62,277 bases of DNA from a virus: IMG/VR virus record IMGVR_UViG_3300020430_000009. The stretch is one strand, 5' to 3'. Position numbers and translations under genes: made by a program. Positions 11,443-44,313 of the stretch are shown here, piece by piece; position 1 is the stretch's first letter, and each line of letters opens with the position of its first letter. The notes under the pieces are model-generated. The model was not told the DNA's origin. It made no database searches and saw nothing but the letters and a program-made list of their open reading frames with translations.

Positions 11443-12297
11443 ATGATCATTATGGATTACAGCGGCATTGCATTGGCAAGCATTATTATCAATAAGACGT
11501 TTGAAGAATCTCTCATCCGTCATATGATACTCAATTCTATTAGAATGTATCGGTCTCGATATCTTGAAGAATACGGCGAGATAGTACTGGCTTGTGATGG
11601 TCCTAACAACTGGCGTAGGTCAGCTTTTCCACAGTACAAAGCTAATAGAAAAAAAGGTAGGGACGAATCTACTTTTGATTGGAACGAAGCTTTTAGAATC
11701 TTACACCTTGTAAGAGAAGAAATCAAAGAAAACTTTCCGTACAAAGTCATTCACATAGATCAATGTGAAGCCGATGATATTATTGGTACACTAGTTAATC
11801 TTAAATCAGATGTGCCGATTGCACCGGAACCAGTCATGATTGTTTCATCAGATCGAGACTTCGTTCAATTACAAAAGTTTCCAAACGTAAAACAGTATTC
11901 TCCTATCTTGAAAAAAGAGGTTGTTGAATCTAATCCTAGATTGTTCTTACAAACTCATATTATCAAAGGTGATAAAGGAGATGGTGTACCAAATATCTTA
12001 TCAGAAGATAATGTATTTGTCGAAGGCTTTAGGCAAACTCCTATGTCTAAAAAGAAGATAGATAATATTATTGAAGATTTAGACGATGGAGAATTGCTGT
12101 ACGCAGCTTCTTGGTATAGGAACTATTGTAGAAATAAAAAATTGATAGATCTTACCGAAACTCCTAGCGATCTAAAACGTCAGATTATAAATAGTTTTGA
12201 GGAACAAGATCCATGGTCAAACAAAGGTAACGTGTTTCCATATCTAGTTTCAAAAAATTGTAATGAATTGATAAAAAGTGTACAGGAGTTTGTATGA
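11443..12297 (+). CDS. rnh: T4-type RNase H / 5'-3' exonuclease
   Basis: YKANR, EADDIIG, SSDRDFVQL and GDKGDGVPNI motifs. Confidence 0.9.
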   Translation: MIIMDYSGIALASIIINKTFEESLIRHMILNSIRMYRSRYLEEYGEIVLACDGPNNWRRSAFPQYKANRKKGRDESTFDWNEAFRILHLVREEIKENFPYKVIHIDQCEADDIIGTLVNLKSDVPIAPEPVMIVSSDRDFVQLQKFPNVKQYSPILKKEVVESNPRLFLQTHIIKGDKGDGVPNILSEDNVFVEGFRQTPMSKKKIDNIIEDLDDGELLYAASWYRNYCRNKKLIDLTETPSDLKRQIINSFEEQDPWSNKGNVFPYLVSKNCNELIKSVQEFV

Positions 12298-12713
12298 TGA
12301 AACAGTATGTTTTTGAAGTTATCGAAGAAGCTGCTAAGCAGCGAAATCGAGATGGTAAAGTAAAAGTCTTAAAACAAAATGAGTCTTGGGCATTGAAGGA
12401 TATTATACGAGGTTCAATGGATTCTAAAGTAGAATGGAACCTACCTGAAGGTTCCCCACCATATCAAGCATCCGCAGCTCATAACCACCCTACAAATCTT
12501 CTAAGAGAAAATACTAAATTTAAGTATTTAGTTAAAGGTGGTCCTGGGGATAAAATGCCAAAATATAAAAGAGAACAAATTTTTATAGGCATGCTTGAAG
12601 GTGTACATCCTGAAGATGCTAAGCTTGTCGTCTCGATGGTTAACAAGAAAAAAATAACAGGCATCACACGCCCGGTTGTAGAGGAGGCTTTTCCAGGGTT
12701 GCTTAAAGACTGA
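12294..12713 (+). CDS. conserved T4-like protein (DUF6433-like)
   Basis: WNLPEGSPPY...KREQIFIGMLEGVHPEDA; usual position after rnh. Confidence 0.65.
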   Translation: MMKQYVFEVIEEAAKQRNRDGKVKVLKQNESWALKDIIRGSMDSKVEWNLPEGSPPYQASAAHNHPTNLLRENTKFKYLVKGGPGDKMPKYKREQIFIGMLEGVHPEDAKLVVSMVNKKKITGITRPVVEEAFPGLLKD

Positions 12714-12736
12714 CTCTATTTCCAGAAAGGACAAGA

Positions 12737-12913
12737 ATGGTACTTGCACAACTTGAAAGATTACAAAAAGATTCCAGCGATTTAGAACTTTACGCTCTTA
12801 AACTTAAAAAGAGAGGAAGAATACAACAAATGGAAAACATCTTAAGAAAAAGAGATTATGTAAGGGAAAAAATCAAGTTGATAAAAAGTCCGGAGGTTCA
12901 ATATTCTACTTAG
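12737..12913 (+). CDS. small hypothetical protein (58 aa, not in ORF track)
   Basis: SD aagga; MVLAQLERLQKD... Confidence 0.6.
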   Translation: MVLAQLERLQKDSSDLELYALKLKKRGRIQQMENILRKRDYVREKIKLIKSPEVQYST

Positions 12914-12928
12914 TTAAAAAAATAAACG

Positions 12929-12957
12929 TTTACAATTATTGAATAATATGATACTAT
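12929..12957 (+). promoter_or_regulatory. sigma70-type promoter
   Basis: TTTACA-17 bp-TACTAT with TG extended -10. Confidence 0.6.
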
Positions 12958-12979
12958 ATAATGATAATAAGGAATTGAT

Positions 12980-13552
12980 ATGAATATTTTTATACTTCAT
13001 GAAGATCCAGTCGTTGCGGCTCAGATGCTTTGTGACAGACACGTTCCTAAAATGATCGTAGAGTCTGCGCAAATGTTAAGCACGGCGCATAGGCTACTAG
13101 ATGGTGTACCCGAAAAAAGACCGTCAAAGTCAGGAAAGACTATACAAACTTACTACGCGTTTGGAGACGAACGCGATAAATTGTATTATGCTGCTGTTCA
13201 TAAGCATCATCCTTGTACCACATGGACTATGGAATCTTCTCAAAATTACAAATGGCATTATAAACATTTTTACGCCATGGGCCAAGAGTTTACTTATCGA
13301 AGAGAAAAGTCACATAAGACTATTGAATTGCTAGGTAAGTTGTTATCTAAAATTCCAGAAAATATACCACATGGTCCACTTACTCCGTTCGCTCAAGCAA
13401 TGTCACACTATCCTATGTGCAAGGTTGATGGCGATGCGGTAAAAGCATATCGTAATTATTATCACGTGGCTAAAGATTTTGCTGTTTGGGAATGGAAAAG
13501 ACCAGCGCCTAGCTGGTGGGAGGGATATAAAGGTGCCAGTTTATACAGTTAG
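12980..13552 (+). CDS. pyrimidine dimer DNA glycosylase (DenV / Pyr_excise-like)
   Basis: MNIFIL...DRHVPKMIVESAQMLSTAH and HPCTTW motifs. Confidence 0.75.
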   Translation: MNIFILHEDPVVAAQMLCDRHVPKMIVESAQMLSTAHRLLDGVPEKRPSKSGKTIQTYYAFGDERDKLYYAAVHKHHPCTTWTMESSQNYKWHYKHFYAMGQEFTYRREKSHKTIELLGKLLSKIPENIPHGPLTPFAQAMSHYPMCKVDGDAVKAYRNYYHVAKDFAVWEWKRPAPSWWEGYKGASLYS

Positions 13553-13763
13553 AAGAAAAGATGGAGAAGAAGAATGGGATATAATGTGTTCTCACGAAGA
13601 AGCAAAACAAACATGTGAAGAATACGGTCTTGTCATTGTTCCTAAATTTCCTGCTATAGTCTCTGGTACAGGAAGCTTAATCTCTAAAACAGACGATGGA
13701 TGGAAAGAAAATCTTAAAAGAATAAAATCAGGAGCTGGAAAAGGTAATACTATAAAAGTATGA
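13533..13763 (+). CDS. FmdB-like small regulatory protein
   Basis: GTG start giving MPVYT...; DDGWKENLKRIK; usual position before phoH. Confidence 0.55.
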   Translation: MPVYTVRRKDGEEEWDIMCSHEEAKQTCEEYGLVIVPKFPAIVSGTGSLISKTDDGWKENLKRIKSGAGKGNTIKV

Positions 13764-14440
13764 GCAAGCAGTCTGTAAAATTTGAAGATTTAATTGAGAT
13801 TGAACCTATAACTACAAATCAAGTTAAAGCATTTGATGCGTGGGCTGATGGAGACCATTTAGTTTTAGCTGGTTCTGCTGGAACTGGTAAAACTTTTATA
13901 GCGTTGTACTTAGCGCTACAATCAGTTTTAGAATCATATACTTCTTTTAATAAAGTGGTATTGGTTCGATCTGTAGTTCCAACTCGAGAAGTTGGATATT
14001 TACCCGGCGATATTGGGGAAAAGGTAGAACCTTTTGAAGCGCCATATAAAAATATATGCTTAGAATTATTTAGAGATACAAATTCTACTTATAACAAACT
14101 TATAAATAGTCATCAGATGGTATTTAATACCACATCTTTTATTCGTGGAATTACTATAGATAATGCCATAGTCGTAGTAGACGAAATGCAAAATCTTAAT
14201 TTTCACGAGTTAGATTCTATAATAACTCGCGTAGGGCGTGATTGCAGAATAATCTTTTCTGGAGATTATCACCAGTCAGACTTTAAGGACTCTTATGAAA
14301 GAGATGGAATACAGAGATTCTTAAGAATAGTCGAGCAACTAAAGAACTTTAGTGTAATCACATTTGGATGGGACGATATTGTAAGATCTGATTTTTTAAG
14401 AGATTACATCATGACAAAAGAAATGTTAGGAGTAAAATGA
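13760..14440 (+). CDS. phoH: PhoH-family ATPase
   Basis: GSAGTGKT, GYLPG, FIRG, DEMQN and GDYHQSD motifs. Confidence 0.92.
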   Translation: MSKQSVKFEDLIEIEPITTNQVKAFDAWADGDHLVLAGSAGTGKTFIALYLALQSVLESYTSFNKVVLVRSVVPTREVGYLPGDIGEKVEPFEAPYKNICLELFRDTNSTYNKLINSHQMVFNTTSFIRGITIDNAIVVVDEMQNLNFHELDSIITRVGRDCRIIFSGDYHQSDFKDSYERDGIQRFLRIVEQLKNFSVITFGWDDIVRSDFLRDYIMTKEMLGVK

Positions 14441-14712
14441 TGACGGAATGGTTTTTTATAATAGTAACATTCGTTCTAGCCAATCCACTACAAGATTCTC
14501 GTCCACTGTATGTATTTACACAGCCACAATTTGAATCATTGGAACAGTGTATTGGTTACGTTGAACAAAATAAAAATAAAATCTTTTACATAGCTGCAGA
14601 TTCCTACAGGTTTCAGCAACAGCCTGAAACTATATACTGTACACCACAAAATGTATTAGGTGAAATGATTAGGGAAGGATACAAAATACAGCAAAATGAA
14701 AAGAGTATTTGA
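14437..14712 (+). CDS. hypothetical protein with signal-like N-terminus
   Basis: hydrophobic N-terminus, Cys pair. Confidence 0.55.
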   Translation: MMTEWFFIIVTFVLANPLQDSRPLYVFTQPQFESLEQCIGYVEQNKNKIFYIAADSYRFQQQPETIYCTPQNVLGEMIREGYKIQQNEKSI

Positions 14713-15373
14713 GCATGAAAAAATTGATGTTGGATATAATGATTTGGACGCAGACACAACCGATACTGGTAGGACATACACTGCTCCTGATGGTTCTTCT
14801 TATCCTAGCATTACCACTGTTCTTGGAGTATTAAGTGAAGACGCAATACGTGCATGGCGAGAAAGAGTTGGCGAAGACGAAGCTAATAAGATTAGCGGCA
14901 GAGCTAGTAATCGCGGTACTCGTGTACATAGCATTGTCGAGCGGTATTTAAAGAATGAAGATACAACAGACAATCTCCCTCATATTAGGCAAAGTCTTGA
15001 AAACTTGCGGCCAATTCTTGATAAATCTATCGGGAAAATCTTTGGCCTCGAAGTTGCTCTTTATAGTAATCATCTTGGTGTTGCTGGTCGTTGCGATTGC
15101 ATAGCCGAGTTTGATGGAGTACCTTCAATAGTAGATTTTAAGACATCTAAAAGAATTAAAAAGAAAAACAAGATACACAGCTATTTCGCTCAAGCAGCAG
15201 CATATGCTATAATGTTTGAAGAGCGAACCGGAATGGCCATACCTAACTTGGTCATAGTCATGGATGTAGACCATGAAAAGCCCTTGGTGTTCAGAGAACA
15301 TCGAGATAATTGGATAAAACTTTTAACGGAGACAATAGATGAGTATCGCAGAAGAAAGATGTTCGGACACTAA
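14696..15373 (+). CDS. PD-(D/E)XK exonuclease (Cas4-like fold, T4-like)
   Basis: YPSITTVL, RGTRVH, AGRCDC...DFKTS and Q..AYA motifs. Confidence 0.85.
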   Translation: MKRVFEHEKIDVGYNDLDADTTDTGRTYTAPDGSSYPSITTVLGVLSEDAIRAWRERVGEDEANKISGRASNRGTRVHSIVERYLKNEDTTDNLPHIRQSLENLRPILDKSIGKIFGLEVALYSNHLGVAGRCDCIAEFDGVPSIVDFKTSKRIKKKNKIHSYFAQAAAYAIMFEERTGMAIPNLVIVMDVDHEKPLVFREHRDNWIKLLTETIDEYRRRKMFGH

Positions 15374-15374
15374 T

Positions 15375-15602
15375 ATGGCTTTGACACAAGTCATTCAGTT
15401 AAGAAATGAATTTGAAGATCTAACGAGAGGGTATAATATGCCCGAAGGATCTAGTATAGATAATATTGAGTGGTTCATAGAAAATGGCCATAGGTCAAAT
15501 TCTCTTCGTAATGGATTTGCAGATGCAATGAAGATAGCGCGTAGAATTAAGGAGTACTATTATGGCAGCTCAAAAAAGACTAGAAAAAGGAAGCGTCTAT
15601 GA
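15375..15602 (+). CDS. hypothetical protein
   Basis: ATG immediately after the upstream stop. Confidence 0.55.
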   Translation: MALTQVIQLRNEFEDLTRGYNMPEGSSIDNIEWFIENGHRSNSLRNGFADAMKIARRIKEYYYGSSKKTRKRKRL

Positions 15603-15924
15603 AAAATATGATGTAGATGGTGACGGAGTCGTAAGTGATGAGGAGTTAGACGTGGAAAGAAGAATGATTGAACTTGAAGACCTCAGGTCTGACATGGAGA
15701 ATGAAGATAAAAAGCAAGACGCCCAAAGAAACATGGCTTGGTTTGCTCTTGGTGGCATGCTACTTTATCCTGCTTTTGTTATTACTGCAACATTATTTAA
15801 ACTTGATAATGCTGCAAAAATATTAGGAGACATGGCCGCAGTATACTTTGTATCGGTAGCGGCAATCGTGGCAGCATTTTATGGTAAAGAGGCAATCACC
15901 CAAAAGAAAGTAGATAAAAAATAA
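15562..15924 (+). CDS. membrane protein with EF-hand-like loop (holin-like topology)
   Basis: DVDGDGVVSDEE followed by two transmembrane helices. Confidence 0.55.
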   Translation: MAAQKRLEKGSVYEKYDVDGDGVVSDEELDVERRMIELEDLRSDMENEDKKQDAQRNMAWFALGGMLLYPAFVITATLFKLDNAAKILGDMAAVYFVSVAAIVAAFYGKEAITQKKVDKK

Positions 15925-16499
15925 TGAAACTACATCAGTATGAAAATTATGATGAATATGTAAAGGAGCAGACTCAGGCTAACGTAGCTAAGTTAAAAAA
16001 CGTTTGGGTAAGAGAAAACGCTATTCAAAAAGTAGTGTCTTACAAACCTTTTGCTGCTAGCATATTGTGCCATGGAACTAGAAACGGTAAGGAACTCGAA
16101 TATTTTAAAAAGTTCTTACCTCATGCCGAAGTCGTTGGAACTGAAATATCTCATACAGCTACTCAGTTTAAGAACACGGTTCAACACGACTTCCATGAGG
16201 TTAGAGAAGATTTTATTGGTAAGTTTGATATAGTGTATTCAAATTCTTTTGATCATGCTTACGATCCGGATAAAGCTATATTAGCTTGGAAAGATCAGCT
16301 TACGTCAGAAGGTGTTTTAGTTATAGAACTTATGACAGGAGTTGAGAACGTATCTAGGCCAGTAGATCCACTTGAAATTAATTACGAAGAATTTAAAGAA
16401 CTTGCAGAAAAAAATGGATTGAGAATCTTTGAAAAAAATATCATGCAAAGACAGATGTCCGGCGCAAAGAACAGTATCATGGTGGCTTTAAAAAAATGA
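15924..16499 (+). CDS. class I SAM-dependent methyltransferase
   Basis: LCHGTRNG motif I, VGTEIS, FDIVYSNSFDH. Confidence 0.7.
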   Translation: MKLHQYENYDEYVKEQTQANVAKLKNVWVRENAIQKVVSYKPFAASILCHGTRNGKELEYFKKFLPHAEVVGTEISHTATQFKNTVQHDFHEVREDFIGKFDIVYSNSFDHAYDPDKAILAWKDQLTSEGVLVIELMTGVENVSRPVDPLEINYEEFKELAEKNGLRIFEKNIMQRQMSGAKNSIMVALKK

Positions 16500-17326
16500 C
16501 TAAAAGGTTAATATATCAGGTGTACACTGGCAAAAGATCTAAACTTTACGATCATTGCACAGCTTCTGTTAAAGCATATGCTGAAGACATTAACGAGAAA
16601 GAATCTCCTAACAATAGAGTTGACTATATAATTCAAACTCAACCAATCATGAAGATTAAACCTGACGTATTTGCCACAAATAGAAGTAAAGAATCTTATG
16701 AAAAGTATGGAGGATTCTTACCGATATATGAAAAAGAAAATGCATTTAATTATTGGGATCGTTATGATCAGATAGCTATCATAGATGCTGACGTTTGGGT
16801 AAGGCCAGGGACTGAAAATATATTTGACGTTATGAATCATGAAACGGAATTTGCTGGAATGGCAGAGAGAACAGCTCCAATTTTGCCATGGTATAAAGAA
16901 AAACTGATAGGTTATACTAGAATGCAATATTCTTCTTTAACGGATGTTGATTGGCGATGGAACGAATCCGGTGCTCATTTTTATAATATGGGCGTGATGC
17001 TACTAAACAGGCATATAGTTCAGTATTTAAAAGGTAAAAGTAAAAGATACGAAACTGGTAGAGAATTTATTGAAAGACCAGAGTTTAAAAGATTTGTTGA
17101 TGGACTTGGAGCTTGGAAGTGGAGTACGGATCAAACACTTTTAAATTACTGGGTCAAAAAAGAAAAAATGGAACAACAAGAATTAAGTTGGAAATGGAAT
17201 GCACTATATACTGCGATCTCTAATGAAGACGCTAAGAAAGCTTACTTCGTACATTTCTTTCTTAAAGACAAATTGCCTAACAGAGGCGAAGACGTAGAAA
17301 AGCTTATGGAGGACGTAAATGAATAG
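16496..17326 (+). CDS. GT-A fold glycosyltransferase (GT8-like)
   Basis: IIDADVW DxD, YNMGVMLL, DQTLLN, WNAL and FVHF motifs. Confidence 0.75.
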   Translation: MTKRLIYQVYTGKRSKLYDHCTASVKAYAEDINEKESPNNRVDYIIQTQPIMKIKPDVFATNRSKESYEKYGGFLPIYEKENAFNYWDRYDQIAIIDADVWVRPGTENIFDVMNHETEFAGMAERTAPILPWYKEKLIGYTRMQYSSLTDVDWRWNESGAHFYNMGVMLLNRHIVQYLKGKSKRYETGREFIERPEFKRFVDGLGAWKWSTDQTLLNYWVKKEKMEQQELSWKWNALYTAISNEDAKKAYFVHFFLKDKLPNRGEDVEKLMEDVNE

Positions 17327-18398
17327 GTACCATGTAACATATGAGGTTGATGGTCCAGACATACCAAAGATTGCTCATGAAATAGCTATTGGCCAAAGTA
17401 TTGGTAATCCAAATATTAGATCTGAAATAGAAAATTCAGATAATATTAAAGAAATGGCGGCTGAAATCGTAAGCATTGATGGCAATGAGGTTGTGATTTC
17501 ATTTCCTAATAAAGCATTTAATTGGCCAAACATCAATCAACTTATGTGTATTATTATGGGTGGACATACTGATATCATGGGAGTCGATAGATGTAGAGTC
17601 TTAGATATCAGTATTGAAGTTCCAGTTAAGGAGCCAGTGCTAGGAATGTCAGGCTTGAAAAAAAGAACTGGTGCTGAGGAAAGGCCACTATTTGGGGCTA
17701 TCGTAAAACCAAAGTCAGGACTTACAAAAGATCAGCTTACTGAAATAGTAAAACAAATGATGGACGGTGGAGCTGATTTTATTAAAGAAGATGAAATCAT
17801 GGCAGATAATTCATACCTGCCACTTCATGAAAGAGTGGAAGTAATTGAAACACTTAAAACAACTTGTGACTGGAAAGGATTCTACGCTTATTGTATAAAC
17901 GCAGATCCGTTAGATCTTATTGCTAACTTAAAGATAATTGATTATCATACAGGTCTAAAAGAAAATGTAATGGGAGGTGTTCATATCAACTTTTGGTCTG
18001 GCCTAGGTGCATATACCTCTGCTAGAGATATGAGTATTCCATGTCACTATCAAAGATCTGGAATTAGAATTTTAACAGATCCGAGTAATAAATACTCGAT
18101 AGCTTGGCCGGTTTTGGCTAAGTTAGGCTGTATGGCTGGAGTAGATAGTATGCACGTAGGAATGTTAGGTGGATATTATCCTGAAGGCGAGAGCGAGGAA
18201 GAAACTCTTAGGGCGATTGACATATGCAAACAACACAATACAATCCCATCGCTAAGTTGTGGAATGAATCCCGTACTCGCTCAAGAAATACGAGAGAGAA
18301 TTGGTAATGACTTTATGGCTTCAATAGGAGGCTGGCTCCATACTGGAGAAACTATATACGAAAAAGTATATGAGATGAGAAGAAGTCTTGATTCATAA
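17319..18398 (+). CDS. RuBisCO-like protein (form IV RLP)
   Basis: GAIVKPKSGL, GGADFIKEDE, AGVDSMHVG, PSLSCG and IGGWLH align with the RuBisCO large-subunit motifs; His294 and Lys334 equivalents appear absent. Confidence 0.88.
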   Translation: MNRYHVTYEVDGPDIPKIAHEIAIGQSIGNPNIRSEIENSDNIKEMAAEIVSIDGNEVVISFPNKAFNWPNINQLMCIIMGGHTDIMGVDRCRVLDISIEVPVKEPVLGMSGLKKRTGAEERPLFGAIVKPKSGLTKDQLTEIVKQMMDGGADFIKEDEIMADNSYLPLHERVEVIETLKTTCDWKGFYAYCINADPLDLIANLKIIDYHTGLKENVMGGVHINFWSGLGAYTSARDMSIPCHYQRSGIRILTDPSNKYSIAWPVLAKLGCMAGVDSMHVGMLGGYYPEGESEEETLRAIDICKQHNTIPSLSCGMNPVLAQEIRERIGNDFMASIGGWLHTGETIYEKVYEMRRSLDS

Positions 18399-18441
18399 TC
18401 CTATACAACGTGATGATTTAATTGAAGTGAAAGGTAAGACT

Positions 18442-19179
18442 ATGAGTTTAAAACTAATTATGCCAATGGCCGGCAATGGTCAAAGATTCTTCGACGCAGG
18501 CTACAATAGGCCAAAACCCTTGATTGATATTAAGGGTAAGCCGATGTTTAAAAGAGTAATCGATAATCTTGGAATGGACGTTGATCCTGTTTGTATAGTA
18601 CGGCAAGATCATGTAACTGACTACGAGATAGATAAGAGAATTATCGAGCATCAGCCGAATGCTAAGATAATTATTACCCCTGGACTAACTGAAGGTGCCG
18701 CATGTACGGTAAGACTAGCTACTAGTGTATTTAGTAACGAACCTATGATGGTCGCAAATTGTGATCAGCTTATGGTTTGGGACGACTTAGGATTTAACGG
18801 CTTGTGCGCTAGTGGAAAATTTGAAGGTGGAATTATTCCTACTTTTATTCCTAAGCATGAAGAGCCTATTCATAGTTATGTAAGAGTAAACGAAAATAAC
18901 GAAGTACTAGAACTAGCAGAAAAGAAACTAATATCTAATATAGCTACTGTTGGAGTTTACTACTTTGGTAGCGAATCTGGATGGTGCGCGGCTCATGCTA
19001 AGCAAATGGATAACGATGATAGAACTAATGGAGAGTTCTATCTCGCTCCAACTTATAATTATATTTCGTATCCAGTTGGAATATACCCTGTCGATCATAT
19101 GATCGGCATGGGTACACCAGAAGAACTAGATGCTTTAGTTGAAAGCGAATGGTTAGAAAGGCTAGACGAAATATCATGA
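18442..19179 (+). CDS. sugar-phosphate nucleotidyltransferase (BcbE-like / dTDP-Glc pyrophosphorylase-like)
   Basis: IMPMAGNGQRF...PKPLI, TEGAACT, NCDQ, ATVGVYYF, NGEFYLAP and GTPEEL motifs. Confidence 0.85.
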   Translation: MSLKLIMPMAGNGQRFFDAGYNRPKPLIDIKGKPMFKRVIDNLGMDVDPVCIVRQDHVTDYEIDKRIIEHQPNAKIIITPGLTEGAACTVRLATSVFSNEPMMVANCDQLMVWDDLGFNGLCASGKFEGGIIPTFIPKHEEPIHSYVRVNENNEVLELAEKKLISNIATVGVYYFGSESGWCAAHAKQMDNDDRTNGEFYLAPTYNYISYPVGIYPVDHMIGMGTPEELDALVESEWLERLDEIS

Positions 19180-19907
19180 AAATAGCAGTGTGCATATCAG
19201 GAGTTCCTAGAGGAAGAGTTAAAAGAAATATTGAGCACTTAGAAATGGCGTTTGAAGGAGCTGATTTCTTTTATTCAACTTGGAATGAAACTAGCAATGG
19301 AATATCTGAAAGCCTTAAAGCTTCTACGTATCCAGAACCTAAGATGCATTACAATCCATGGAGTGAGTGCGTCACTGCATGTAAGGCTCCAAAATATAAA
19401 GCTTACAAAGAAGACTTTTTAAGAAAAGGTCCTTTGTCTAGTCAACAGAAACTACTTAACGCTACAAAACAAATTATAGCTCACGCCTATCAAGTAGAAG
19501 ATTTACCAGAAGAATATGACATGATCATTAGAGCTAGATGGGACACCTACACATCGATAAAAGTCAACTTTGAAAAATACTTACAAGACTCGTATAACAA
19601 TCAACAAGCCATAGGGTTTGCTATAAGAGGTAGTAGATGGATAGACGTAAACAAATTTAGAGACATAGATCACATGTATATCGATGAAAACACGGATAAA
19701 AGTTGGAGTCGAGATTGGTCTTATTGGCTAAATGATAATTTAATAATACACCCTAGAAAAATATTTGATCCAGTCAGAGTCAAGCTACTTCATAGAATGA
19801 AAGGACTCTTGCCTTGCGAGTTTGGTTGGTATCAGGTACTAAGTAATAATGATAATCACCATTGCGTTTATGGTGGTGCCGCCATCGAAAGATTTGTAGA
19901 TAGATAA
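19176..19907 (+). CDS. putative glycosyltransferase
   Basis: MKIAVCISG...YDMIIRARWD pattern seen in viral glycosylation clusters. Confidence 0.55.
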   Translation: MKIAVCISGVPRGRVKRNIEHLEMAFEGADFFYSTWNETSNGISESLKASTYPEPKMHYNPWSECVTACKAPKYKAYKEDFLRKGPLSSQQKLLNATKQIIAHAYQVEDLPEEYDMIIRARWDTYTSIKVNFEKYLQDSYNNQQAIGFAIRGSRWIDVNKFRDIDHMYIDENTDKSWSRDWSYWLNDNLIIHPRKIFDPVRVKLLHRMKGLLPCEFGWYQVLSNNDNHHCVYGGAAIERFVDR

Positions 19908-20318
19908 ATGCTTGACACTTTGTTTAAGAGATACAAATCTAAAAGACCTCATGTTTATTACTATGAGAGAGAATTATTTAAACACAAAATATATCCTATC
20001 AATTTACTACAAGTAGGAATGGACACCACACTACAAGTTTGGCTTAAGTACTTGAAAAATTCGAATATCTATTGCATAGATAGTTTTAACAATTCGCAAC
20101 CAGTTAACTATAGTTTTTTAGATGACAAAAGATTATTTTGGTCAAGATGCGATCCTGACGATCGCAAAGCAGTAGATAAAATTATGCGTGAGATATGGAA
20201 TAAGCCAAGATTTGACGTGATTATAGATAATACTAACAACTTCGAAAATCTTAAAAGATACTGTATTGGAAAATACTACGCAGAGAAAAAAGATGAAGTC
20301 ATTTGCCATAGTTGTTAA
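19908..20318 (+). CDS. short or degenerate SAM-methyltransferase-like protein
   Basis: NLLQVG, IYCID and FDVIID remnants of a sugar O-methyltransferase fold. Confidence 0.45.
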   Translation: MLDTLFKRYKSKRPHVYYYERELFKHKIYPINLLQVGMDTTLQVWLKYLKNSNIYCIDSFNNSQPVNYSFLDDKRLFWSRCDPDDRKAVDKIMREIWNKPRFDVIIDNTNNFENLKRYCIGKYYAEKKDEVICHSC

Positions 20319-20994
20319 AGACAACAAAATATCAGAAGCTGGATTTGAAGAACTTAAAAGAACGTGGGGATCTTATGGATACGAATATTCTTCACTTGAA
20401 AAACACTATGCGACTCCTTTAGACAAAGTTGAAGGATACTGCGCTGGAAATGGATTGATTTGGAACTATCCGTGGGAAGGTGAAGTAATAGATATAAAAA
20501 GTGGACTTACCAAAAAAGCGTATCCAACCACAAATAGACTAGCAAGAATTTCTTGTTTCATGAGTCACTGGTATCTTTGGCAAAAATGTATAAAATTAGA
20601 CGAGATGATTTTAATATTTGAACATGACGCCAAGCTTATAAAACAGTTACCCAGTGTAAAAACTTTTGACAAGTGTTCATTCGATATTATTGGTATTAAT
20701 GATCCTTCTATGGCTACTAGAAAGTCTAAGTTATATCACGATTTGATTCTTAAAAATCCAGAAAAAATTCAGCCAGTTCCAACCATCGATGAAGTACACG
20801 TACCTCAAGGATTGGCTGGTAATTCTGCTTACGTAATCAAACCATCTGGAGCTAAAAAGATGATTGAACTTACAAGGGAACACGGGATGTGGCCAAACGA
20901 CGCACTTATGTGTAAACAGTTAATATCTACATTAGGTGTTACACGAAACTTTTACTCTACAATTCAAGGATTGAGGTCAACGACAACGCTATGA
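20293..20994 (+). CDS. glycosyltransferase family 25
   Basis: SCFMSHWYLW, LIFEHDA and AYVIKPSGAKKMI motifs. Confidence 0.8.
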   Translation: MKSFAIVVKDNKISEAGFEELKRTWGSYGYEYSSLEKHYATPLDKVEGYCAGNGLIWNYPWEGEVIDIKSGLTKKAYPTTNRLARISCFMSHWYLWQKCIKLDEMILIFEHDAKLIKQLPSVKTFDKCSFDIIGINDPSMATRKSKLYHDLILKNPEKIQPVPTIDEVHVPQGLAGNSAYVIKPSGAKKMIELTREHGMWPNDALMCKQLISTLGVTRNFYSTIQGLRSTTTL

Positions 20995-21641
20995 CAAATT
21001 ACTATGTAATCACTATGATGGACAACGAAAGATCTACTCAGGTTGCGAGAAGATGTATTGAAAGTGGAAAGAAGCTTGGATATAATATATTGATGTTTAA
21101 AGCTTTTACACCAGATAATTGCAATCCAGAAGAAGTGGCGATCACTAATGATTTACCACTAAAAGGATTTGAAGAAAAATACAGCAGAACCGGAAACTGC
21201 ATATCTGGATTTCTAAGTCATTTTCATTTATGGAAACTTACTGTGGCTAATAACACTCCAACTTTTATATTTGAACACGATGCAGTGATTCTCAATAAAC
21301 TTCCAGACATGACTAATTACGATATCTTATCAGTTGGAAAGCCTTCCTATGGAAAATTTAACATTCCAACTTTCTTAGGTGAAGGTCCACTAACTTCAAA
21401 AAGATACTTCCCTGGCGCTCACGGATACAGAGTAACACCAAAAGGCGCTCAAATGTTAATTGACGAAGCTAAACATACAGCTGGTCCTACTGACGTGTTT
21501 ATTCACGTAGATAAATTTCAGTATCATTTAGGAGAAACTTATCCATGGTCAGTAGAAGCTAATGACTCATTTACTACGATTCAAAGACAAGAAGGCTGTT
21601 TAGCAAAACACAATTATGGTGAAACTTATGAAATTATATGA
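20991..21641 (+). CDS. glycosyltransferase family 25
   Basis: GFLSHFHLW, FIFEHDA and GYRVTPKGAQMLI motifs. Confidence 0.8.
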   Translation: MTNYYVITMMDNERSTQVARRCIESGKKLGYNILMFKAFTPDNCNPEEVAITNDLPLKGFEEKYSRTGNCISGFLSHFHLWKLTVANNTPTFIFEHDAVILNKLPDMTNYDILSVGKPSYGKFNIPTFLGEGPLTSKRYFPGAHGYRVTPKGAQMLIDEAKHTAGPTDVFIHVDKFQYHLGETYPWSVEANDSFTTIQRQEGCLAKHNYGETYEII

Positions 21642-22266
21642 TGAGGCTTTTGTCACAGGTTGCGATAAAGGACATGAATGGATTCTTCCGTGGTTCTTAA
21701 ATAATTACAAACAACATGTTAATGTACCACTAGTGTTCGCTAACTTTGGCTTAACTAAAGAAGGCTTAAATCTAGTTAAAGATCATGCTCACGCAATCAT
21801 GGACTTAACTTCAGCAGAAGAAAAAGGCTGGTTCAAGAAACCATTATCTATGCTAAAGTGTCCAGCAAAGAAAACAGTTTGGATAGATACCGACTGCCAG
21901 ATCAAAGAAGACGTATCTGATATATTTGATCTTATTAAAGAAAATAAACTTTATATGGTAGAAGATAAACCATGGACTCAAAGGCGAGGAGAGGTTTGGC
22001 ATAACTCTGGTGTCGTTGGTTTCGTAAACAAACCACCAATACTATATCAATGGGTAAAGGCCGTAAAAGAAAATCCTACGGTAGGAGACCAAGAAACTTT
22101 ACATTCGATACTTAATCCTATAACTAAGATCGGTAACATCGCTGACTTGCCTAATAGATATAATGTTATGAGGTTACAAGTTGAACACGATAGTTATAAA
22201 GGACCGGTAAGTATCATGCATTGGACCGGCCAAAAAGGTAAAGATAGAATTAGGAATATGTTATGA
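21628..22266 (+). CDS. GT-A fold glycosyltransferase (GT8-like)
   Basis: WIDTDC, NSGVV, GDQETL and IMHWTG motifs. Confidence 0.7.
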   Translation: MKLYDEAFVTGCDKGHEWILPWFLNNYKQHVNVPLVFANFGLTKEGLNLVKDHAHAIMDLTSAEEKGWFKKPLSMLKCPAKKTVWIDTDCQIKEDVSDIFDLIKENKLYMVEDKPWTQRRGEVWHNSGVVGFVNKPPILYQWVKAVKENPTVGDQETLHSILNPITKIGNIADLPNRYNVMRLQVEHDSYKGPVSIMHWTGQKGKDRIRNML

Positions 22267-22883
22267 AGAAAGTTGTACACGTAATTGGTAACGGCGACCA
22301 AGCATCTTTATTTCACAAAGAACATCGGACTGGAATGAAACTAACATGTAATATTCCACCATGGCCAGTGGCTGGAGCTTATGGTACTATCATGGTAGAT
22401 TTTAAAATGATGAGAGCATTACATGAAGGTTCCTTAGATATACCGGGAGACTGGATATTAGGCATGAGGCCAAAGATATGGATGGATCAACAGCCTTCTT
22501 TCTTTATTAAACACTCTCATCAAGTTAAAGAGTTTTACACGGTCCTTCCAAATTACGTTGCAAACTACACTGATTTTAATTGCGGTCATATGGCAGTACA
22601 TTATGCCGCTAATAAAGTTAAAGCAGAAGAAATACATTTGTATGGATTCGATTCTATGTTTGATTTTAATCTAAGAAGCTGTTCTGATTTTTATCTTGGA
22701 TCTGATAGAGGTAATATGAACACAAATAGATTAGCCAATAACTGGAGACCAGTATGGCAAAACATGTTCAAAGAGTTTCCAGACACTACCTTTGTTCTAC
22801 ATCATATACATGATGCGATAAAGTTCCAAGTTCCTGATAATGTTGAAGTAATCACTTATTCTAGTAAGGCCGTAATGACTTAA
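22263..22883 (+). CDS. Maf/GT29-like transferase
   Basis: VHVIGNG...G..AV..A...IHLYGFD pattern. Confidence 0.55.
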   Translation: MKKVVHVIGNGDQASLFHKEHRTGMKLTCNIPPWPVAGAYGTIMVDFKMMRALHEGSLDIPGDWILGMRPKIWMDQQPSFFIKHSHQVKEFYTVLPNYVANYTDFNCGHMAVHYAANKVKAEEIHLYGFDSMFDFNLRSCSDFYLGSDRGNMNTNRLANNWRPVWQNMFKEFPDTTFVLHHIHDAIKFQVPDNVEVITYSSKAVMT

Positions 22884-22890
22884 AAAAAAT

Positions 22891-22941
22891 TCACTTTGAG
22901 GTGATTTTTTTGTTTACATTCTTGTTTTTTTATGGTATAAT
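22891..22941 (+). promoter_or_regulatory. sigma70-type promoter with upstream TCAC-N6-GTGA palindrome
   Basis: TCACTTTGAGGTGA (22891-22904); TTTACA (22913)-17 bp-TATAAT (22936). Confidence 0.8.
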
Positions 22942-22968
22942 ATAACTATAAAATGAAGAGGACACAAG

Positions 22969-23379
22969 ATGTTATTAGTTAATGTACAAGGCGGAACCGC
23001 ACAGAAAAGGCAACTAGCCGAAGATCTTTGCTATTTCGTGGCGCAAAGGTACAAGTTCTCTCCAAAAAAAGAAATAGAAATAGATGTCAACATCAAGAGT
23101 ATAGATGGGGCACAGGGTTTCTGTATGGACTGTGATGATGGTCTATATGAAATAGAAATAGATAACAAAATTACTGGTGACGATTTTATTACTTGTGTAC
23201 TACACGAATTGGTACACGTCAAGCAGTACGTTAAGAAAGAACTACACGATTGTGGTTGTGTTCAAATGTACAAAAAGGTGGCTTACGAAACTGACATGAA
23301 CTATCTTGATAAGCCATGGGAAAAAGAAGCATATAAAATGCAAGAAGTATTACTGGAGGAGTATAAAAATGCTAGCTGA
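22969..23379 (+). CDS. zinc metallopeptidase-like protein
   Basis: HELVH (HExxH) plus PWEKEA. Confidence 0.75.
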   Translation: MLLVNVQGGTAQKRQLAEDLCYFVAQRYKFSPKKEIEIDVNIKSIDGAQGFCMDCDDGLYEIEIDNKITGDDFITCVLHELVHVKQYVKKELHDCGCVQMYKKVAYETDMNYLDKPWEKEAYKMQEVLLEEYKNAS

Positions 23380-23584
23380 AGGAGCAACAGAATACGGTTA
23401 CAGAGGACTGGCCGAGATAGAACTCTTAAAAAAACAAATAGCTGAGGAAACTAAAGAAAAGTACACGCTATATAAGCGCATCAAAGAGTTGACTGAATTA
23501 CTAGAAGAGTATAAAAGAGTAAATCAAGCTTTGAAAGACGAATTGCCATTAAATGTAATTGAAAAAATAATTCAAAAAAAGTGA
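23369..23584 (+). CDS. coiled-coil hypothetical protein
   Basis: SD ggagga before ATG 23369. Confidence 0.55.
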   Translation: MLAEGATEYGYRGLAEIELLKKQIAEETKEKYTLYKRIKELTELLEEYKRVNQALKDELPLNVIEKIIQKK

Positions 23585-23622
23585 AAAAAGTCCTTTACAT
23601 TTGCTTAAAAGTATGGTATAAT
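23581..23622 (+). promoter_or_regulatory. sigma70-type promoter (near-duplicate of 25096-25150)
   Basis: TTTACA (23594)-17 bp-TATAAT (23617). Confidence 0.8.
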
Positions 23623-23695
23623 ATATCTATAAAATGGAAAAAGAAATGAAAACAAAAGTGGAGAAAATCAATGACATAGCGAAGGTAACCGGCAG

Positions 23696-23845
23696 GATGT
23701 GTGATGGACAACGAGATGACGAGAAGCACATCGGGATTTACAGGTACGGAACTACCCAGGGAATCAGCGGCGGAGTATAAAACGTTCCCCTCCTTACCAT
23801 GGGGCCGATAGGTCGGTAAGGAGGATGGTATTGACAACGGCCCCA
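23696..23845 (+). ncRNA. candidate structured RNA with H-type pseudoknot
   Basis: stems CCTCCTTACC/GGTAAGGAGG (10 bp) and TGGGGCCG/CGGCCCCA (8 bp) interleave; additional short upstream stems. Confidence 0.45.
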
Positions 23846-23877
23846 AAGAATTTATAAGCGAAACTGAGGAGTAAATT

Positions 23878-24081
23878 ATGAAAATTTTAAAAGCAATCAA
23901 AGATATTAAGTTTGACAATGGAGTTTCCGAGCCTATTGTCATGGCTTCTGCAGCTGGTTGGTACGTAGGTGCAATCGATAATAGTGAAGGTTTTATTCAG
24001 CCCTACGACAGATACACCGGCTACTATGCCACTTCCGGCGAAGCCGAAACAGTTTTGGACGGGCATTTTAGTAATGCCTAG
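23878..24081 (+). CDS. hypothetical early protein
   Basis: SD gaggag; SAAGWYVG...PYDR motif. Confidence 0.65.
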   Translation: MKILKAIKDIKFDNGVSEPIVMASAAGWYVGAIDNSEGFIQPYDRYTGYYATSGEAETVLDGHFSNA

Positions 24082-24289
24082 TCCATCCGAACTACAAGCA
24101 ATGACGCCGCTATTTCTTCAACTCCTCTTCTTCGCGGTAGCTGGCGCATTGCTCGTAGGCACTTTCGTATCGATCGTCGGTTTGATGTATCGATACGCTC
24201 TTCTTATAGTGTTCGTGCTGTTGGTAGTCTACAGTATCAACTATGGAGTTATCGATATAAATAAGTTAGTACAGGGAGTTGGCGTATGA
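24074..24289 (+). CDS. small membrane protein
   Basis: two hydrophobic helices. Confidence 0.55.
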   Translation: MPSPSELQAMTPLFLQLLFFAVAGALLVGTFVSIVGLMYRYALLIVFVLLVVYSINYGVIDINKLVQGVGV

Positions 24290-24441
24290 TTAGGTGGTTT
24301 GATTATATCATCATAGCACCATTTGCTTACGTGCTATCAAAATCATTTATTATTGGAGCTTATGATTTTACTATTATTTCATATTTGCTCTACGTTGTCT
24401 ATTGCGTGAAAAGAAAAACATGGGAAGGTAAAAAAGTATGA
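24286..24441 (+). CDS. small membrane protein (51 aa, not in ORF track)
   Basis: MIRWFDYIIIAPF...; ATGA overlaps at both ends. Confidence 0.55.
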   Translation: MIRWFDYIIIAPFAYVLSKSFIIGAYDFTIISYLLYVVYCVKRKTWEGKKV

Positions 24442-24797
24442 CTATGCACTTAATGCCAGTTTATTACAATAACAATAACAGTAAAAAACGTAAACCTTTC
24501 CGAAAGCCGGGGTGGCAAAAAGCTCAGGCTGAACACGATGCTTGGTTAAAGAAGCGTGGTGTTCATCCTAGTCAGCTTAAAAACAAAGAGAAATCTAGTG
24601 GCAACAGTATTCCGGATTATTCATCAAACCGTAAGAGCATCCCGACGTCGGATTACGTCGGGCCAATCGAAGGCCGTAAGGCAGCAAAAGTCTATAGTGG
24701 TGACTACATCGTTGGTATCGCAACCATGCACAAATCAAACGCAGTCCCTGTTGGTAAAGGCGATGACATCAAAGCATACGCTAAAATGAGAAGGTAA
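24438..24797 (+). CDS. conserved T4-like hypothetical protein
   Basis: GIATMHKSNAVPV motif. Confidence 0.7.
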   Translation: MTMHLMPVYYNNNNSKKRKPFRKPGWQKAQAEHDAWLKKRGVHPSQLKNKEKSSGNSIPDYSSNRKSIPTSDYVGPIEGRKAAKVYSGDYIVGIATMHKSNAVPVGKGDDIKAYAKMRR

Positions 24798-24803
24798 CAA
24801 TTT

Positions 24804-24879
<76 letters not shown>

Positions 24880-24895
24880 ATTATGGAGAAGAGGA

Positions 24896-25099
24896 ATGGA
24901 ACTAATATTTGTAGCCACACTTTGGATGATGGCTAATAAAGAGTTTGTCGTAACCGCAAACAAACAAATTCAAGATGGTTACAAGTGGCATAAGGTAGAA
25001 TGCAGAAAACCAGACGAAAATATACCACATGTTAAAATAAAATCCCCAAACGGAAAAGAATATATTTGCTTAAAGCTAAAAAAAATCACCTTGAAGTGA
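24896..25099 (+). CDS. hypothetical protein
   Basis: ATG after the tRNA with SD; the ORF-track start overlaps the tRNA. Confidence 0.55.
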   Translation: MELIFVATLWMMANKEFVVTANKQIQDGYKWHKVECRKPDENIPHVKIKSPNGKEYICLKLKKITLK

Positions 25100-25137
25100 A
25101 AAAAGTCCTTTACATTTGCTCAAAAGTATGATAGAAT
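25086..25137 (+). promoter_or_regulatory. sigma70-type promoter with upstream TCAC-N6-GTGA palindrome
   Basis: TCACCTTGAAGTGA (25086-25099); TTTACA (25109)-17 bp-TAGAAT (25132). Confidence 0.75.
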
Positions 25138-25168
25138 ATACTTATAAAATAAAAAATGAGGAGTTGTT

Positions 25169-25360
25169 ATGGATATGAATATGTTAGTAGATATGTTAGC
25201 TAGGATGACAGCTGTAGAAAAAGTACAGTTTGTCGAAAAGCTTTGTGATACGCATCCTAACTTAGCTTTTGAAATCAGTAACTCAATTGAGGTTACTATG
25301 ATGGATAAAGTCTTTTTGGAAAACGAAAAGAAAGTACAGGCTGCGAGGCAGGTGGTATGA
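25169..25360 (+). CDS. hypothetical early protein
   Basis: SD gaggag. Confidence 0.6.
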   Translation: MDMNMLVDMLARMTAVEKVQFVEKLCDTHPNLAFEISNSIEVTMMDKVFLENEKKVQAARQVV

Positions 25361-25599
25361 AAAATCCTATAGCAAAATATTTAATGTGTTCCTATGCTTA
25401 TTATGAGCAAGGTGATCCACTTATATCGGATCAAGAGTTCGATGAGTTAGCTAAGTACATACTAGCTAATTATGATAATATAGAACATATGCACAAGCAT
25501 CTTGTGACTATAGGTGATTTGGAAGCTGGTACTTACTTAGGTAAATATCCAGCAATGGTTAAAGGCGCAGTTGGAAGTTATAGAAGGGGAGAAAGATAA
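25357..25599 (+). CDS. stand-alone NAD+-ligase domain Ia-like protein
   Basis: YAYYEQGDPLISDQEFDEL resembles the LigA YY..D.P.ISD.EYD.L motif. Confidence 0.65.
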   Translation: MKNPIAKYLMCSYAYYEQGDPLISDQEFDELAKYILANYDNIEHMHKHLVTIGDLEAGTYLGKYPAMVKGAVGSYRRGER

Positions 25600-26738
25600 T
25601 GGGACTCACAGCACTAAAAGGTAGAAAATCAAAAAAGAAAATAGCAAGAGCAAAAGTTCGTAGTGGTGCGAATGCTGCTCCAATCGAGAAAGGTTTAGAA
25701 AGTGTACAATATTACTTTCAAAACGAAGTATCTCGTAAAGATGCTATTGAACAAGTAAAGACATATGTCAAAAATAATTTCAGTAAGCAAGAGGCAAGAT
25801 ACATCTTGTCAAATCCTGAATATAAGCTCTTACCAAGTTACTATTCAGCAGCTACTGCTTTCTTTATCAATAGCAATCTTCAAGACGATAAGTTACCTTA
25901 TTGGCAAGAAGCTTTACAAAAGCGTATGACAGATATTATCGAATCTGGTAAGGTGCTCTACGCTGAAAAGCAAAAGGCCAAGAAAGATAGTGCTAATGTC
26001 ATTACACTATCTCCTGCTCAAAGATTGCAGAAAAAGATTAGTAATACAATTATGCAAGATCTACTCGAACTCGAAGACGATTGGATCGACGGAAAAGAAT
26101 CTACTATCAATCTATATGATAGGTTCAAGTTCCATGGCTTGGCAGGCTCCGCTACACTGCCAGTTCGTGGGGTGGTTGAGGGCTGGTTACTAGATTATGA
26201 AGATGCCTACCATAAAAGATGTGACCAAGCAGTTGAAGGGTATTCTCACTTGAAGAGATCAGAACTCAACCGCCGTATTAAAGCGTGTAATGATATGTTA
26301 TCAGATCTCGATAGCATCAAAGCAGCGACTAAAGCAAGTAGAACTATAAAGGTTAAAAGACCTAAGTCTGCCGATAAACAAGTCGCTAAAGTTAAATTTA
26401 AAAGAGAAGATAATGACTTTAAAGTCGTGTCTATCAATCCAGTTCAAATTGTTGGTAAGACTAGGTTATATACCTTCAATGCCAAACATAGAGAACTCAG
26501 TATGTTCTATACCGATAATCCAAGTGGATTTGAAATATCAGGTTCAACTATAAAGTACTTCGATAAAGAACAAAGTATTAAGGTTAGGTTAAGAAAGCCA
26601 ATGGATATGTTGCCATTGATTCTCGATAAGACTCCTAATCAAATACAAAAAGAGTTATCAAACCTTTCGGTAAAGGTCAACACTCCTAATGGTAGACTCA
26701 ACGAGGAAACATTATTGTTAAGAGTACTTGATAAATGA
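25599..26738 (+). CDS. conserved T4-like hypothetical protein
   Basis: 379 aa; SINPVQIVG...LRKP...NGRLNEETLLLRV. Confidence 0.7.
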   Translation: MGLTALKGRKSKKKIARAKVRSGANAAPIEKGLESVQYYFQNEVSRKDAIEQVKTYVKNNFSKQEARYILSNPEYKLLPSYYSAATAFFINSNLQDDKLPYWQEALQKRMTDIIESGKVLYAEKQKAKKDSANVITLSPAQRLQKKISNTIMQDLLELEDDWIDGKESTINLYDRFKFHGLAGSATLPVRGVVEGWLLDYEDAYHKRCDQAVEGYSHLKRSELNRRIKACNDMLSDLDSIKAATKASRTIKVKRPKSADKQVAKVKFKREDNDFKVVSINPVQIVGKTRLYTFNAKHRELSMFYTDNPSGFEISGSTIKYFDKEQSIKVRLRKPMDMLPLILDKTPNQIQKELSNLSVKVNTPNGRLNEETLLLRVLDK

Positions 26739-26983: not shown

Positions 26984-27093
26984 ATGCTTATATATAATAT
27001 AGGTAACTTTGTATCGCTATGATGTTGGCAGGGTTACATTAATATACAGCGTAATATTTCAGTTAATACTTCAGTAAATAAGGAGACAATACT

Positions 27094-44305: not shown

Positions 44306-44313
44306 TATAAATA
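44306..44313 (+). promoter_or_regulatory. T4-type late promoter TATAAATA
   Basis: exact consensus upstream of 44336. Confidence 0.75.

Follow-up and report, generated by a model that had tools for sequence, protein, structure and literature searches.

A run of ten plus-strand genes at positions 15924–22883 of the virus record IMGVR_UViG_3300020430_000009, from an uncultured marine T4-like phage, very probably builds a glycan with an activated sugar that the phage makes for itself, and a RuBisCO-like protein (RLP) is a candidate source of that sugar. Protein families, predicted folds and synteny suggest that the ten genes, numbered O1 to O10 in order, form a cytoplasmic glycan assembly line that would need no lipid carrier. 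As the acceptor we tentatively put forward the phage's own DNA, glycosylated at 5-hydroxymethylcytosine (5hmC). Positions are those of the window, the whole 62,277-nucleotide stretch that was analysed.

The RLP (O3, P0001; 17319–18398, 359 amino acids) has 943 relatives at E≤0.001, most of them 330–400 amino acids long. It matched RuBisCO_large (E 3.6e-22; PF00016, 79.4 bits against a cut-off of 30.1) and 98 RuBisCO or RLP sequences in the PDB at E≤1e-5, and so belongs to form IV in the broad sense. Aligned to form III chains, it keeps the KPK motif, the K-E-D-E metal and carbamate motif, the equivalent of His327, S379 and G381 (S-x-G), and the GG. Against the same chains, H-x-H-R reads H-Y-Q-R (His294 to Gln) and the loop-6 G-K reads Y-Y (Lys334 to Tyr); both the Gln and the Tyr were invariant in 20 family members. 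In spinach numbering, bona fide RuBisCO uses Lys334 and His294 for carboxylation and has Lys175, Lys177, Lys201, Asp203 and Glu204 as well. Because the His294 and Lys334 equivalents are replaced, the RLP is predicted not to be a carboxylase: its residues set it apart from bona fide RuBisCO (forms I–III), and it should be unable to fix CO2. The enolisation apparatus appears to be kept, as apparently are both phosphate sites. Retention of the enolisation, metal and phosphate-site residues, combined with loss of those for carboxylation, suggests that the RLP is probably an isomerase or epimerase. It scored well under the NCBIfam equivalog cut-offs for two characterised RLP enzymes, the decarboxylase OiaX (86.2 bits against 700) and the enolase MtnW (43.6–60.2 against 409–514).

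A survey with the family profile found 79 viral RLP loci. In 70 of the 79, an O4-type nucleotidyltransferase lay no more than 5 kb from the RLP, and 59 of 69 pairs were less than 400 nt apart. The pairing persisted in 38 of the 40 most distant loci (38–47% identity), and O2, O9 and O10 were absent from all 40. The three long forms tested were all HAD_2–nucleotidyltransferase fusions. Neighbours in the distant loci were glycan genes, including GT10 and GT4 glycosyltransferases, sugar methyltransferases, an epimerase, UDP-glucose dehydrogenase and PMM. Two small open reading frames (ORFs) of 108 and 155 amino acids were also conserved there (35/42 and 21/42 loci); neither had a Pfam match, nor a counterpart in the window by tblastn. 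These associations suggest that the RLP travels with a small module for sugar activation, itself part of a modular glycan operon.

In the proposed mechanism, the RLP would isomerise or epimerise a phosphorylated ketose, perhaps a pentulose bisphosphate, and O4 would couple the derived sugar phosphate to a nucleotide. The GT-A protein O5 would then transfer the activated sugar. Further residues would be added by a second set of enzymes, module B, consisting of the GT-A transferases O2, O7, O8 and O9, which are of lipooligosaccharide type, and O10, which has a Maf/sialyltransferase fold. O1 may methylate the glycan, and O6 is presumed to be a dead remnant. By analogy, the RLP could supply its sugar phosphate by a logic recalling the arabinose route of RB69 and DLP3, in which, according to the sections of Lee et al. 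(2026, PMC13326640) used here, a HAD phosphatase trims a 1,5-bisphosphate before activation. A role for the trio of RLP, O4 and O5 in replacing KdsA and KdsB was ruled out, as the relative G006 has both.

The initial annotation had described an overlapping ten-gene run whose labels included an RLP, a degenerate methyltransferase, a GT25 pair and a Maf/GT29-like fold, and the coordinates, Pfam matches and structure models agree with it; all ten ORFs were found in place on the plus strand. With their listed starts, the junctions from O1 to O10 measure -4, -8, -11, -31, 0, -53, -4, -26 and -4 nt. Orthologue alignments favour later starts for O4 (18388–19179; near ATG 18439), O5 (19149–19907; ATG 19176) and O7 (20266–20994; ATG 20293), and an O5 start at ATG 19176 would overlap the O4 stop.

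O4 is a sugar-1-phosphate nucleotidyltransferase by family: it matched NTP_transferase (8.6e-9; 35.8 bits against a cut-off of 21.2) and phrog_3980 (8.2e-45), and its N-terminal GxGxR-type loop, PMAGNGxRF, is invariant. Its best solved relative was the nucleoside diphosphate (NDP)-sugar pyrophosphorylase 4evw (5.5e-19), and HddC was also matched (1.6e-9). O5 has 239 relatives at E≤0.001 and a conserved AVCxSGxxR N-terminus. It had no Pfam match and nothing useful in PDB sequence or profile searches, and among 45 of its relatives Pfam returned WavE alone, weakly, in two. Its model (predicted local distance difference test, pLDDT, 94.7) has a GT-A fold, with GnT-I as the best match (Z 12.6), followed by hyaluronan synthases, IspD and TarP; Foldseek placed KdsB first (3.4e-5) and TarP at 1.2e-4. 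On this model O5 is best described as a nucleotide-sugar-type transferase, and both a glycosyltransferase and a nucleotidyltransferase fit.

O7 and O8 (20991–21641, 216 amino acids) belong to GT25, scoring above the Glyco_transf_25 gathering score of 24 (O7, 6.8e-14 and 52.6 bits; O8, 4.6e-12 and 46.7 bits). O2 (16496–17326, 276 amino acids) and the short O9 (21616–22266, 216 amino acids) are GT8-like GT-A glycosyltransferases. Both fall under the GT8 cut-off of 24.3 bits (18.1, and 23.0, just under it), though they have in common DxD, NxG, DQ and C-terminal His columns. In O9 the IDTDC, NSGV, GDQE and HWTG columns are invariant, and a PDB profile search returned glycogenin weakly (E 0.34); O2 had no PDB sequence or profile match. 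O10 (22263–22883, 206 amino acids) is the most widespread member of the cluster, with 1201 relatives at E≤0.001, none of them named; at least 452 stretches of viral contigs, some with a Tara label, match it. It had no Pfam family and no PDB sequence match. Its model (pLDDT 89) suggests a minimal Maf/sialyltransferase (MptE-like) fold: the Maf glycosyltransferase 5mu5 was the best match (Z 11.0; 167 residues aligned, root-mean-square deviation 3.6), followed by Cst-I (2p56; Z 10.2), SteA (10.1), MptE-like HPPK (9.0) and GT29 enzymes (8.0 and 7.7). Thiamine pyrophosphokinases scored Z 6–7 and unrelated rows about 5. Foldseek also put sialyltransferases at the top, at an E of just 5e-3. The solved chains are 9–13% identical to O10, which at 206 amino acids compares with a Maf chain of 632 residues.

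Of the two methyltransferases, O1 (15924–16499, 191 amino acids) is S-adenosylmethionine-dependent by family (Methyltransf_11, 22.9 bits against a cut-off of 21.2), with a weak match to a Pse-associated methylase. Its orthologues were found solely in the near-identical contigs L001 and L002; methylation of the glycan is plausible, with O1 confined to these contigs. O6 (19908–20318, 136 amino acids) is a truncated, degenerate remnant. It is 29% identical to residues 19–148 of a 233-amino-acid Methyltransf_24-type protein in L006, and has lost the glycine-rich loop and the C-terminal ~100 amino acids.

Membrane segments are absent from all ten proteins, in which the Kyte-Doolittle mean over 19 residues peaks at 1.22. 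No flippase, ABC exporter, polymerase or polyprenyl-phosphate transferase was among the Pfam, PHROG and NCBIfam matches of the ORFs at 12980–27978. The cluster is not a Wzx/Wzy- or ABC-dependent polysaccharide locus. Both absences had been noted in the initial annotation, for transmembrane segments and for a flippase or polymerase, and its proposal of a multi-residue glycan is likewise supported.

We compared the cluster with its relatives. Gene order is kept in divergent IMG/VR contigs whose proteins are 35–65% identical, as well as in two near-identical contigs, and conservation at that divergence argues that the cluster did not arise by chance. In the divergent contigs, orthologue identities were 55–58% for O2, 62–65% for the RLP, 50–54% for O4, 35–37% for O5 and 44–57% for O7–O10. 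O7 orthologues overall were 43–50% identical, those of O2 in L003–L006, L037, L038 and L200 were 55–61% identical, and O8 was present in seven of eight further records. Relatives' clusters carry inserted sulfotransferases, methyltransferases, radical-SAM enzymes and a DHO_dh-like barrel. That of G006 extends through an aminotransferase and a carbamoyltransferase to KdsA, KdsB and cupins, and on to PMM, an RfaE-II-like gene, an epimerase and UDP-glucose dehydrogenase. In the large relatives G008 and G009, O3–O5 are missing, while O2, O7–O10 and an O6-type methyltransferase are retained; the complete genome G016 keeps the GT25 pair and O10 with no RLP; and G015 keeps O4 and O5 with no RLP. Because core genes persist without the RLP in G008, G009 and G016, and O4 and O5 do so in G015, the gene content points to two modules: a core of O2 and O7–O10 kept across the clade, and an accessory sugar-supply trio, O3–O5, that is sometimes incomplete.

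Among deposited phages, the whole cluster by blastn and the RLP by tblastn had no match, and O2 and O8 had no tblastn relative among 50,697 deposited phage records. O10 matched Phage C48C1 alone, for which a text search of the literature returned nothing relevant. A NodU/CmcH-type carbamoyltransferase stands near the O10 homologue both in Phage C48C1 (L039, 4982–6499) and in G006 (L040, 2212–3723), as a recurrent decoration enzyme. The O10 homologue of G008 is split into two overlapping 117-amino-acid ORFs (L035/L036; G008:C1:100464-101052), through a frameshift or an assembly error.

A PHROG scan of 54 ORFs identified the window (GC ~36%) as that of a T4-like myophage, with ribonucleotide reductase, exonucleases, PhoH and a gp32-type single-stranded DNA-binding protein (SSB); after these come baseplate, tail-tube and wedge proteins. 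The gp6 shares 43% identity with that of Phage C48C1 (Kyanoviridae) and ~34% with those of Melnitz and pelagiphage HTVC008M. The cluster lies among early and replication genes, with exonucleases, PhoH and a DNA-binding protein upstream and the gp32 SSB downstream. The T4-type late promoter motif TATAAATA does not occur in 14109–24255, and such sites directly precede structural genes and a second glycosyltransferase cluster. The total of these motifs in the window is not above chance (13 were reached in 9 of 100 shuffles), so only their positions are informative. Sigma-70-like promoters were uninformative (52 found, 58 expected), and a terminator scan gave nothing convincing on the plus strand within the cluster.

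The case for DNA as the acceptor begins with G004, a relative with the same cluster and an RLP of 65% identity. It encodes P0392, which matches the T4 dCMP hydroxymethylase 1b49 at E 1.1e-69. The parts of Lee et al. (2026) consulted give diagnostic positions that separate dCMP hydroxymethylase from 5-hydroxy-dCMP synthase. The Asp that is substituted in 5-hydroxy-dCMP synthases is retained in P0392, which at the substrate-specificity position has Asp as in T4 (cytosine type). Because both diagnostic Asp residues are present, 5hmC is predicted for G004, and the cluster-bearing clade as a whole probably replaces cytosine with 5hmC. The hydroxymethylase was present in the relatives G004, G008, G009, G013, G016, G020 and G022. 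G022 is the closest non-identical relative, and there the RLP (75%), O10 (86%) and the hydroxymethylase stand together on one 47-kb contig.

Most records in the co-occurrence counts are fragments, and the result depends on the direction of sampling. Starting from O10, the hydroxymethylase was found in 4 of 12 records, among them the complete G016 as well as G022; starting from the hydroxymethylase, O10 was found in two of five large records and the RLP in none of the five; and starting from the RLP, one of four records had a ThyA-family match. Of the core-cluster records that are 77% complete or more, G008, G009 and G016 have the hydroxymethylase and G015 does not. In relatives, the hydroxymethylase has DNA polymerase, UvsX and dCMP deaminase as neighbours, together with a MazG-type pyrophosphohydrolase, UDP-glucose dehydrogenase and an epimerase, and a cytidylyltransferase-like ORF overlaps its start. 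These surroundings also hold two uncharacterised genes of ~330 amino acids in L013 (5601–9827; G007) and L016 (3851–9033; G009), with KdsA and KdsB in G009 only. The genes around the relatives' hydroxymethylase could be a separate cassette for 5hmC hypermodification.

Glycosylation of 5hmC DNA would take place after replication and would serve as a shield against host nucleases. According to the portion of Pyle et al. (2023, bioRxiv 10.1101/2023.12.21.572611) drawn on here, GT-A and GT8-like phage enzymes build mono- to trisaccharides on 5hmC DNA, adding both the first and later sugars. O2 and O8 lack relatives among deposited phages, which argues that the glycosyltransferase set is specific to a clade in which the hydroxymethylase is common. 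That the product is, in particular, a methylated oligosaccharide of at least four residues on the 5hmC of the genome, with one residue from an RLP-made sugar, we regard as unlikely.

Several observations weigh against DNA. The hydroxymethylase is not in the window, and neither the near-identical 69-kb record G003 nor G001, which holds a contig 94–99% identical to part of the window, has a ThyA-family match. In eight of the 12 records sampled from O10 the hydroxymethylase was not found. G015, which is 84% complete and carries O2, O4, O5 and O7–O10, has no ThyA-family match, and the complete Phage C48C1 has an O10 homologue and no hydroxymethylase. In G006, the sugar genes that elsewhere flank the hydroxymethylase stand together without it at the syntenic place. 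The co-occurrence of hydroxymethylase and cluster may reflect shared ancestry only. One gene beside the relatives' hydroxymethylase resembles clusters in which 10–36% of members have a 5-hydroxymethyldeoxyuridine (5-hmdU) DNA kinase domain, a lead only; because of this resemblance, 5hmC may have a modification route of its own. The five or six transferases, together with the relatives' sulfotransferases, carbamoyltransferase and aminotransferase, exceed the DNA glycans reported in the passages of Lee et al. (2026) and Pyle et al. (2023) used here, of which a trisaccharide is the largest; by term search, the two papers do not mention GT25 or Maf/sialyltransferase-type enzymes as DNA enzymes. 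The pI of the ten proteins ranges from 4.7 to 9.0, none is strongly basic, and these values give no sign of DNA or membrane binding. The T4 beta-glucosyltransferase family PF09198 had no match anywhere, controls included, and is uninformative.

The same enzymes might instead remodel the host envelope, a serious though doubtful possibility. They would work at the inner membrane face and extend the lipid A-core of lipooligosaccharide, and host machinery would export the outer-core-like oligosaccharide; the altered cell surface could, for example, exclude other phages during infection or stop progeny from binding infected cells. Synthesis of the lipooligosaccharide outer core draws on GT8, GT25 and sialyltransferase-type enzymes, alongside Kdo and heptose genes, and Pfam and structure matches give the cluster a similar make-up of GT8-like, GT25 and sialyltransferase-fold proteins. 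Outer-core transferases are peripheral and do without a flippase, polymerase or membrane segment of their own. The initial annotation had argued for a cytoplasmic acceptor rather than lipopolysaccharide (LPS); this argument is weakened, because the lack of membrane segments does not exclude lipooligosaccharide synthesis, and it is further undercut by the transferase families themselves and by the relatives' KdsA, KdsB and RfaE-II-like gene. The PMM, UDP-glucose dehydrogenase and epimerases of relatives likewise favour the envelope. The cluster also occurs in records where the hydroxymethylase was not found. On the other side, the proteins have no amphipathic or hydrophobic segment for membrane association and a pI near neutral, and O8, O9 and O10, at only 206–216 amino acids, are shorter than their bacterial counterparts. 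O2 and O8 are also unrelated, at the tblastn level, to the glycosyltransferases of deposited cyano- and pelagiphages. Zaragoza-Solas et al. (2020, PMC7029224), in the sections drawn on, argue that GT8-rich gene sets of pelagimyophages modify the host O-chain, and the matching sections of PMC12801897 list 13 glycosyltransferases with KdsA and KdsB of a cyanomyovirus under cell-wall modification; within those sections, LPS modification by a lytic marine myophage rests on no experiment.

Rather unlikely is O-glycosylation of virion proteins, in which soluble transferases would decorate capsid, baseplate or fibre proteins and O10 would be the Maf-like initiating enzyme. All the enzymes are soluble, the best structural match of O10 is to the flagellin glycosyltransferase Maf (Z 11.0), and the sole solved sequence relatives of O9, though weak, are glycogenins, which glycosylate a protein. 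The methyl, sulfate and carbamoyl decorations of the relatives would suit a surface glycan, and the baseplate and fibre proteins hold more DS dipeptides than their composition predicts (6–9 observed against 1.6–4.1 expected). Maf has flanking substrate-binding domains, however, and O10 is the catalytic core alone; nothing ties the DS motif to O10; and no collagen-like repeats, which would suit GT25, occur in any frame. Nor does a late promoter stand at the cluster, while the glycosyltransferase cluster of the fibre region (52.5–59.2 kb) follows TATAAATA at 52410, and its place and promoter motif make that second cluster the more natural virion candidate. Precedents, as far as the sources were consulted, are glycosylated virions of mycobacteriophages and the capsid glycans that giant viruses make with their own cytosolic enzymes. 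It is improbable that the product sits on neither a phage macromolecule nor LPS, as a soluble glycoside, a glycolipid or a teichoic-acid-like phosphodiester unit, or that O10 is a pyrophosphokinase. The fold class of O10 does include MptE-like HPPK (Z 9.0), SteA (Z 10.1) and thiamine pyrophosphokinases (Z 6–7), and O5 is as near the cytidylyltransferases KdsB and IspD as it is to glycosyltransferases. Since a ketose 1-phosphate is non-anomeric, O4 could make a CDP-alditol-like donor. An operon with four clear GT-A transferases points instead to an oligosaccharide on a defined acceptor.

We place 5hmC DNA narrowly first because the relatives carry the hydroxymethylase and MazG, the cluster has a replication-gene setting and no late promoter, and glycosylation of 5hmC by GT-A and GT8-like enzymes has been published. 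Virion proteins or DNA had both been named as acceptors in the initial annotation; the relatives' hydroxymethylase, the missing late promoter and the published 5hmC enzymes move DNA up, ahead of the virion reading preferred there.

Known systems resemble the locus in part. The sections of Jaffe, Castelle, Dupont and Banfield (2018, Mol Biol Evol, PMC6389311) consulted describe ~80 phage 'form IV-like' RLPs of unclear function. As here, these are divergent RLPs on Myoviridae-type IMG/VR contigs with carboxylase residues missing; in contrast, those sections draw no link to sugar nucleotidyltransferases or glycan clusters, and here the RLP is an accessory part of a glycan operon. Beyond that paper, our literature search found nothing linking a phage RLP to a nucleotidyltransferase or glycosyltransferase. 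DNA glycan clusters, namely those for poly-arabinosyl-5-hydroxycytosine in RB69 and DLP3 (Lee et al., 2026) and those for 5hmC (Pyle et al., 2023), share, in the excerpts used, a ThyA-family hydroxylase or hydroxymethylase, a dCTPase-type pyrophosphohydrolase and a phage-made NDP-sugar route. That route likewise ends in a nucleotidyltransferase, and several transferases, GT-A and GT8-like enzymes included, add one to three sugars. Here the hydroxymethylase is found in relatives alone, 10–50 kb from the cluster; an RLP stands where those excerpts have an arabinose-5-phosphate isomerase, a kinase and a HAD phosphatase; and there are GT25 and Maf-fold enzymes and more transferases than the DNA glycans described there need.

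The 'LPS-like' islands of pelagimyophages (PMC7029224) and of the cyanomyovirus S-SCSM2R (PMC12801897) are, in the parts seen, also rich in GT8/GT25-type genes and hold KdsA/KdsB, rfaE-like genes and UDP-glucose dehydrogenase, with function guessed. Their place is for the most part the hypervariable tail-fibre region, as against the replication region for this cluster, and neither paper mentions RuBisCO. Lipooligosaccharide outer-core enzymes and Maf (5mu5; Cst-I, 2p56) have GT8, GT25 and the sialyltransferase/Maf fold in common with the cluster; unlike them, the phage proteins are minimal cores with no membrane-association or substrate-docking domains.

Marine T4-like phages are already known to carry islands of this kind, and the family of the RLP has been published; the novelty lies in the combination, in how its modules behave and in the tie to a clade that carries the hydroxymethylase. 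Phage RLPs entered the literature in 2018 and still have no assigned function, and the roles of the large 'LPS-like' islands of marine T4-like phages are guesses; this locus joins the two. The size of the O10 family (more than 1200 relatives and at least 452 viral stretches) suggests that the module is common in metagenomes. Should an RLP-fed glycan indeed be carried on 5hmC, it would be the longest known DNA-linked glycan and the first use of GT25 and Maf-fold transferases on DNA, as well as the first role of a RuBisCO fold in nucleotide-sugar synthesis and DNA modification.

The second sugar-related cluster occupies 52478–59249 in the tail-fibre region, behind the late promoter motif at 52410. 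It holds two phrog_1962 glycosyltransferases by PHROG match (55735–56556, minus strand; 57776–58522, plus strand), a radical-SAM protein (58485–59249, minus strand), a weak QueC-like match (57120–57779) and several ORFs without a family. DS dipeptides, often as x-D-S-A/G/D, are enriched in the baseplate, fibre and structural proteins at 43352–46654, 50693–52273, 60268–61764 and 27979–29856 (minus strand); other large proteins of the window have 0–2. This enriched dipeptide is probably the 'DS motif' for which O10 had been proposed as the initiating transferase, and the enrichment could be a signature of beta-helix repeats.

Elsewhere, a contig in the 1.4-Mb, 55%-complete genome bin G001 (G001:C15:17260-25114) is 94–99% identical to positions 12140–19997 of the window, and is either a phage contig binned with a cellular genome or a hint of the host. 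Two small ORFs, at 6799–7194 and 10644–11045, match endonuclease or homing-endonuclease PHROGs (phrog_452; phrog_447 and phrog_7363) and flank the ribonucleotide reductase and 'ferredoxin' genes on either side.

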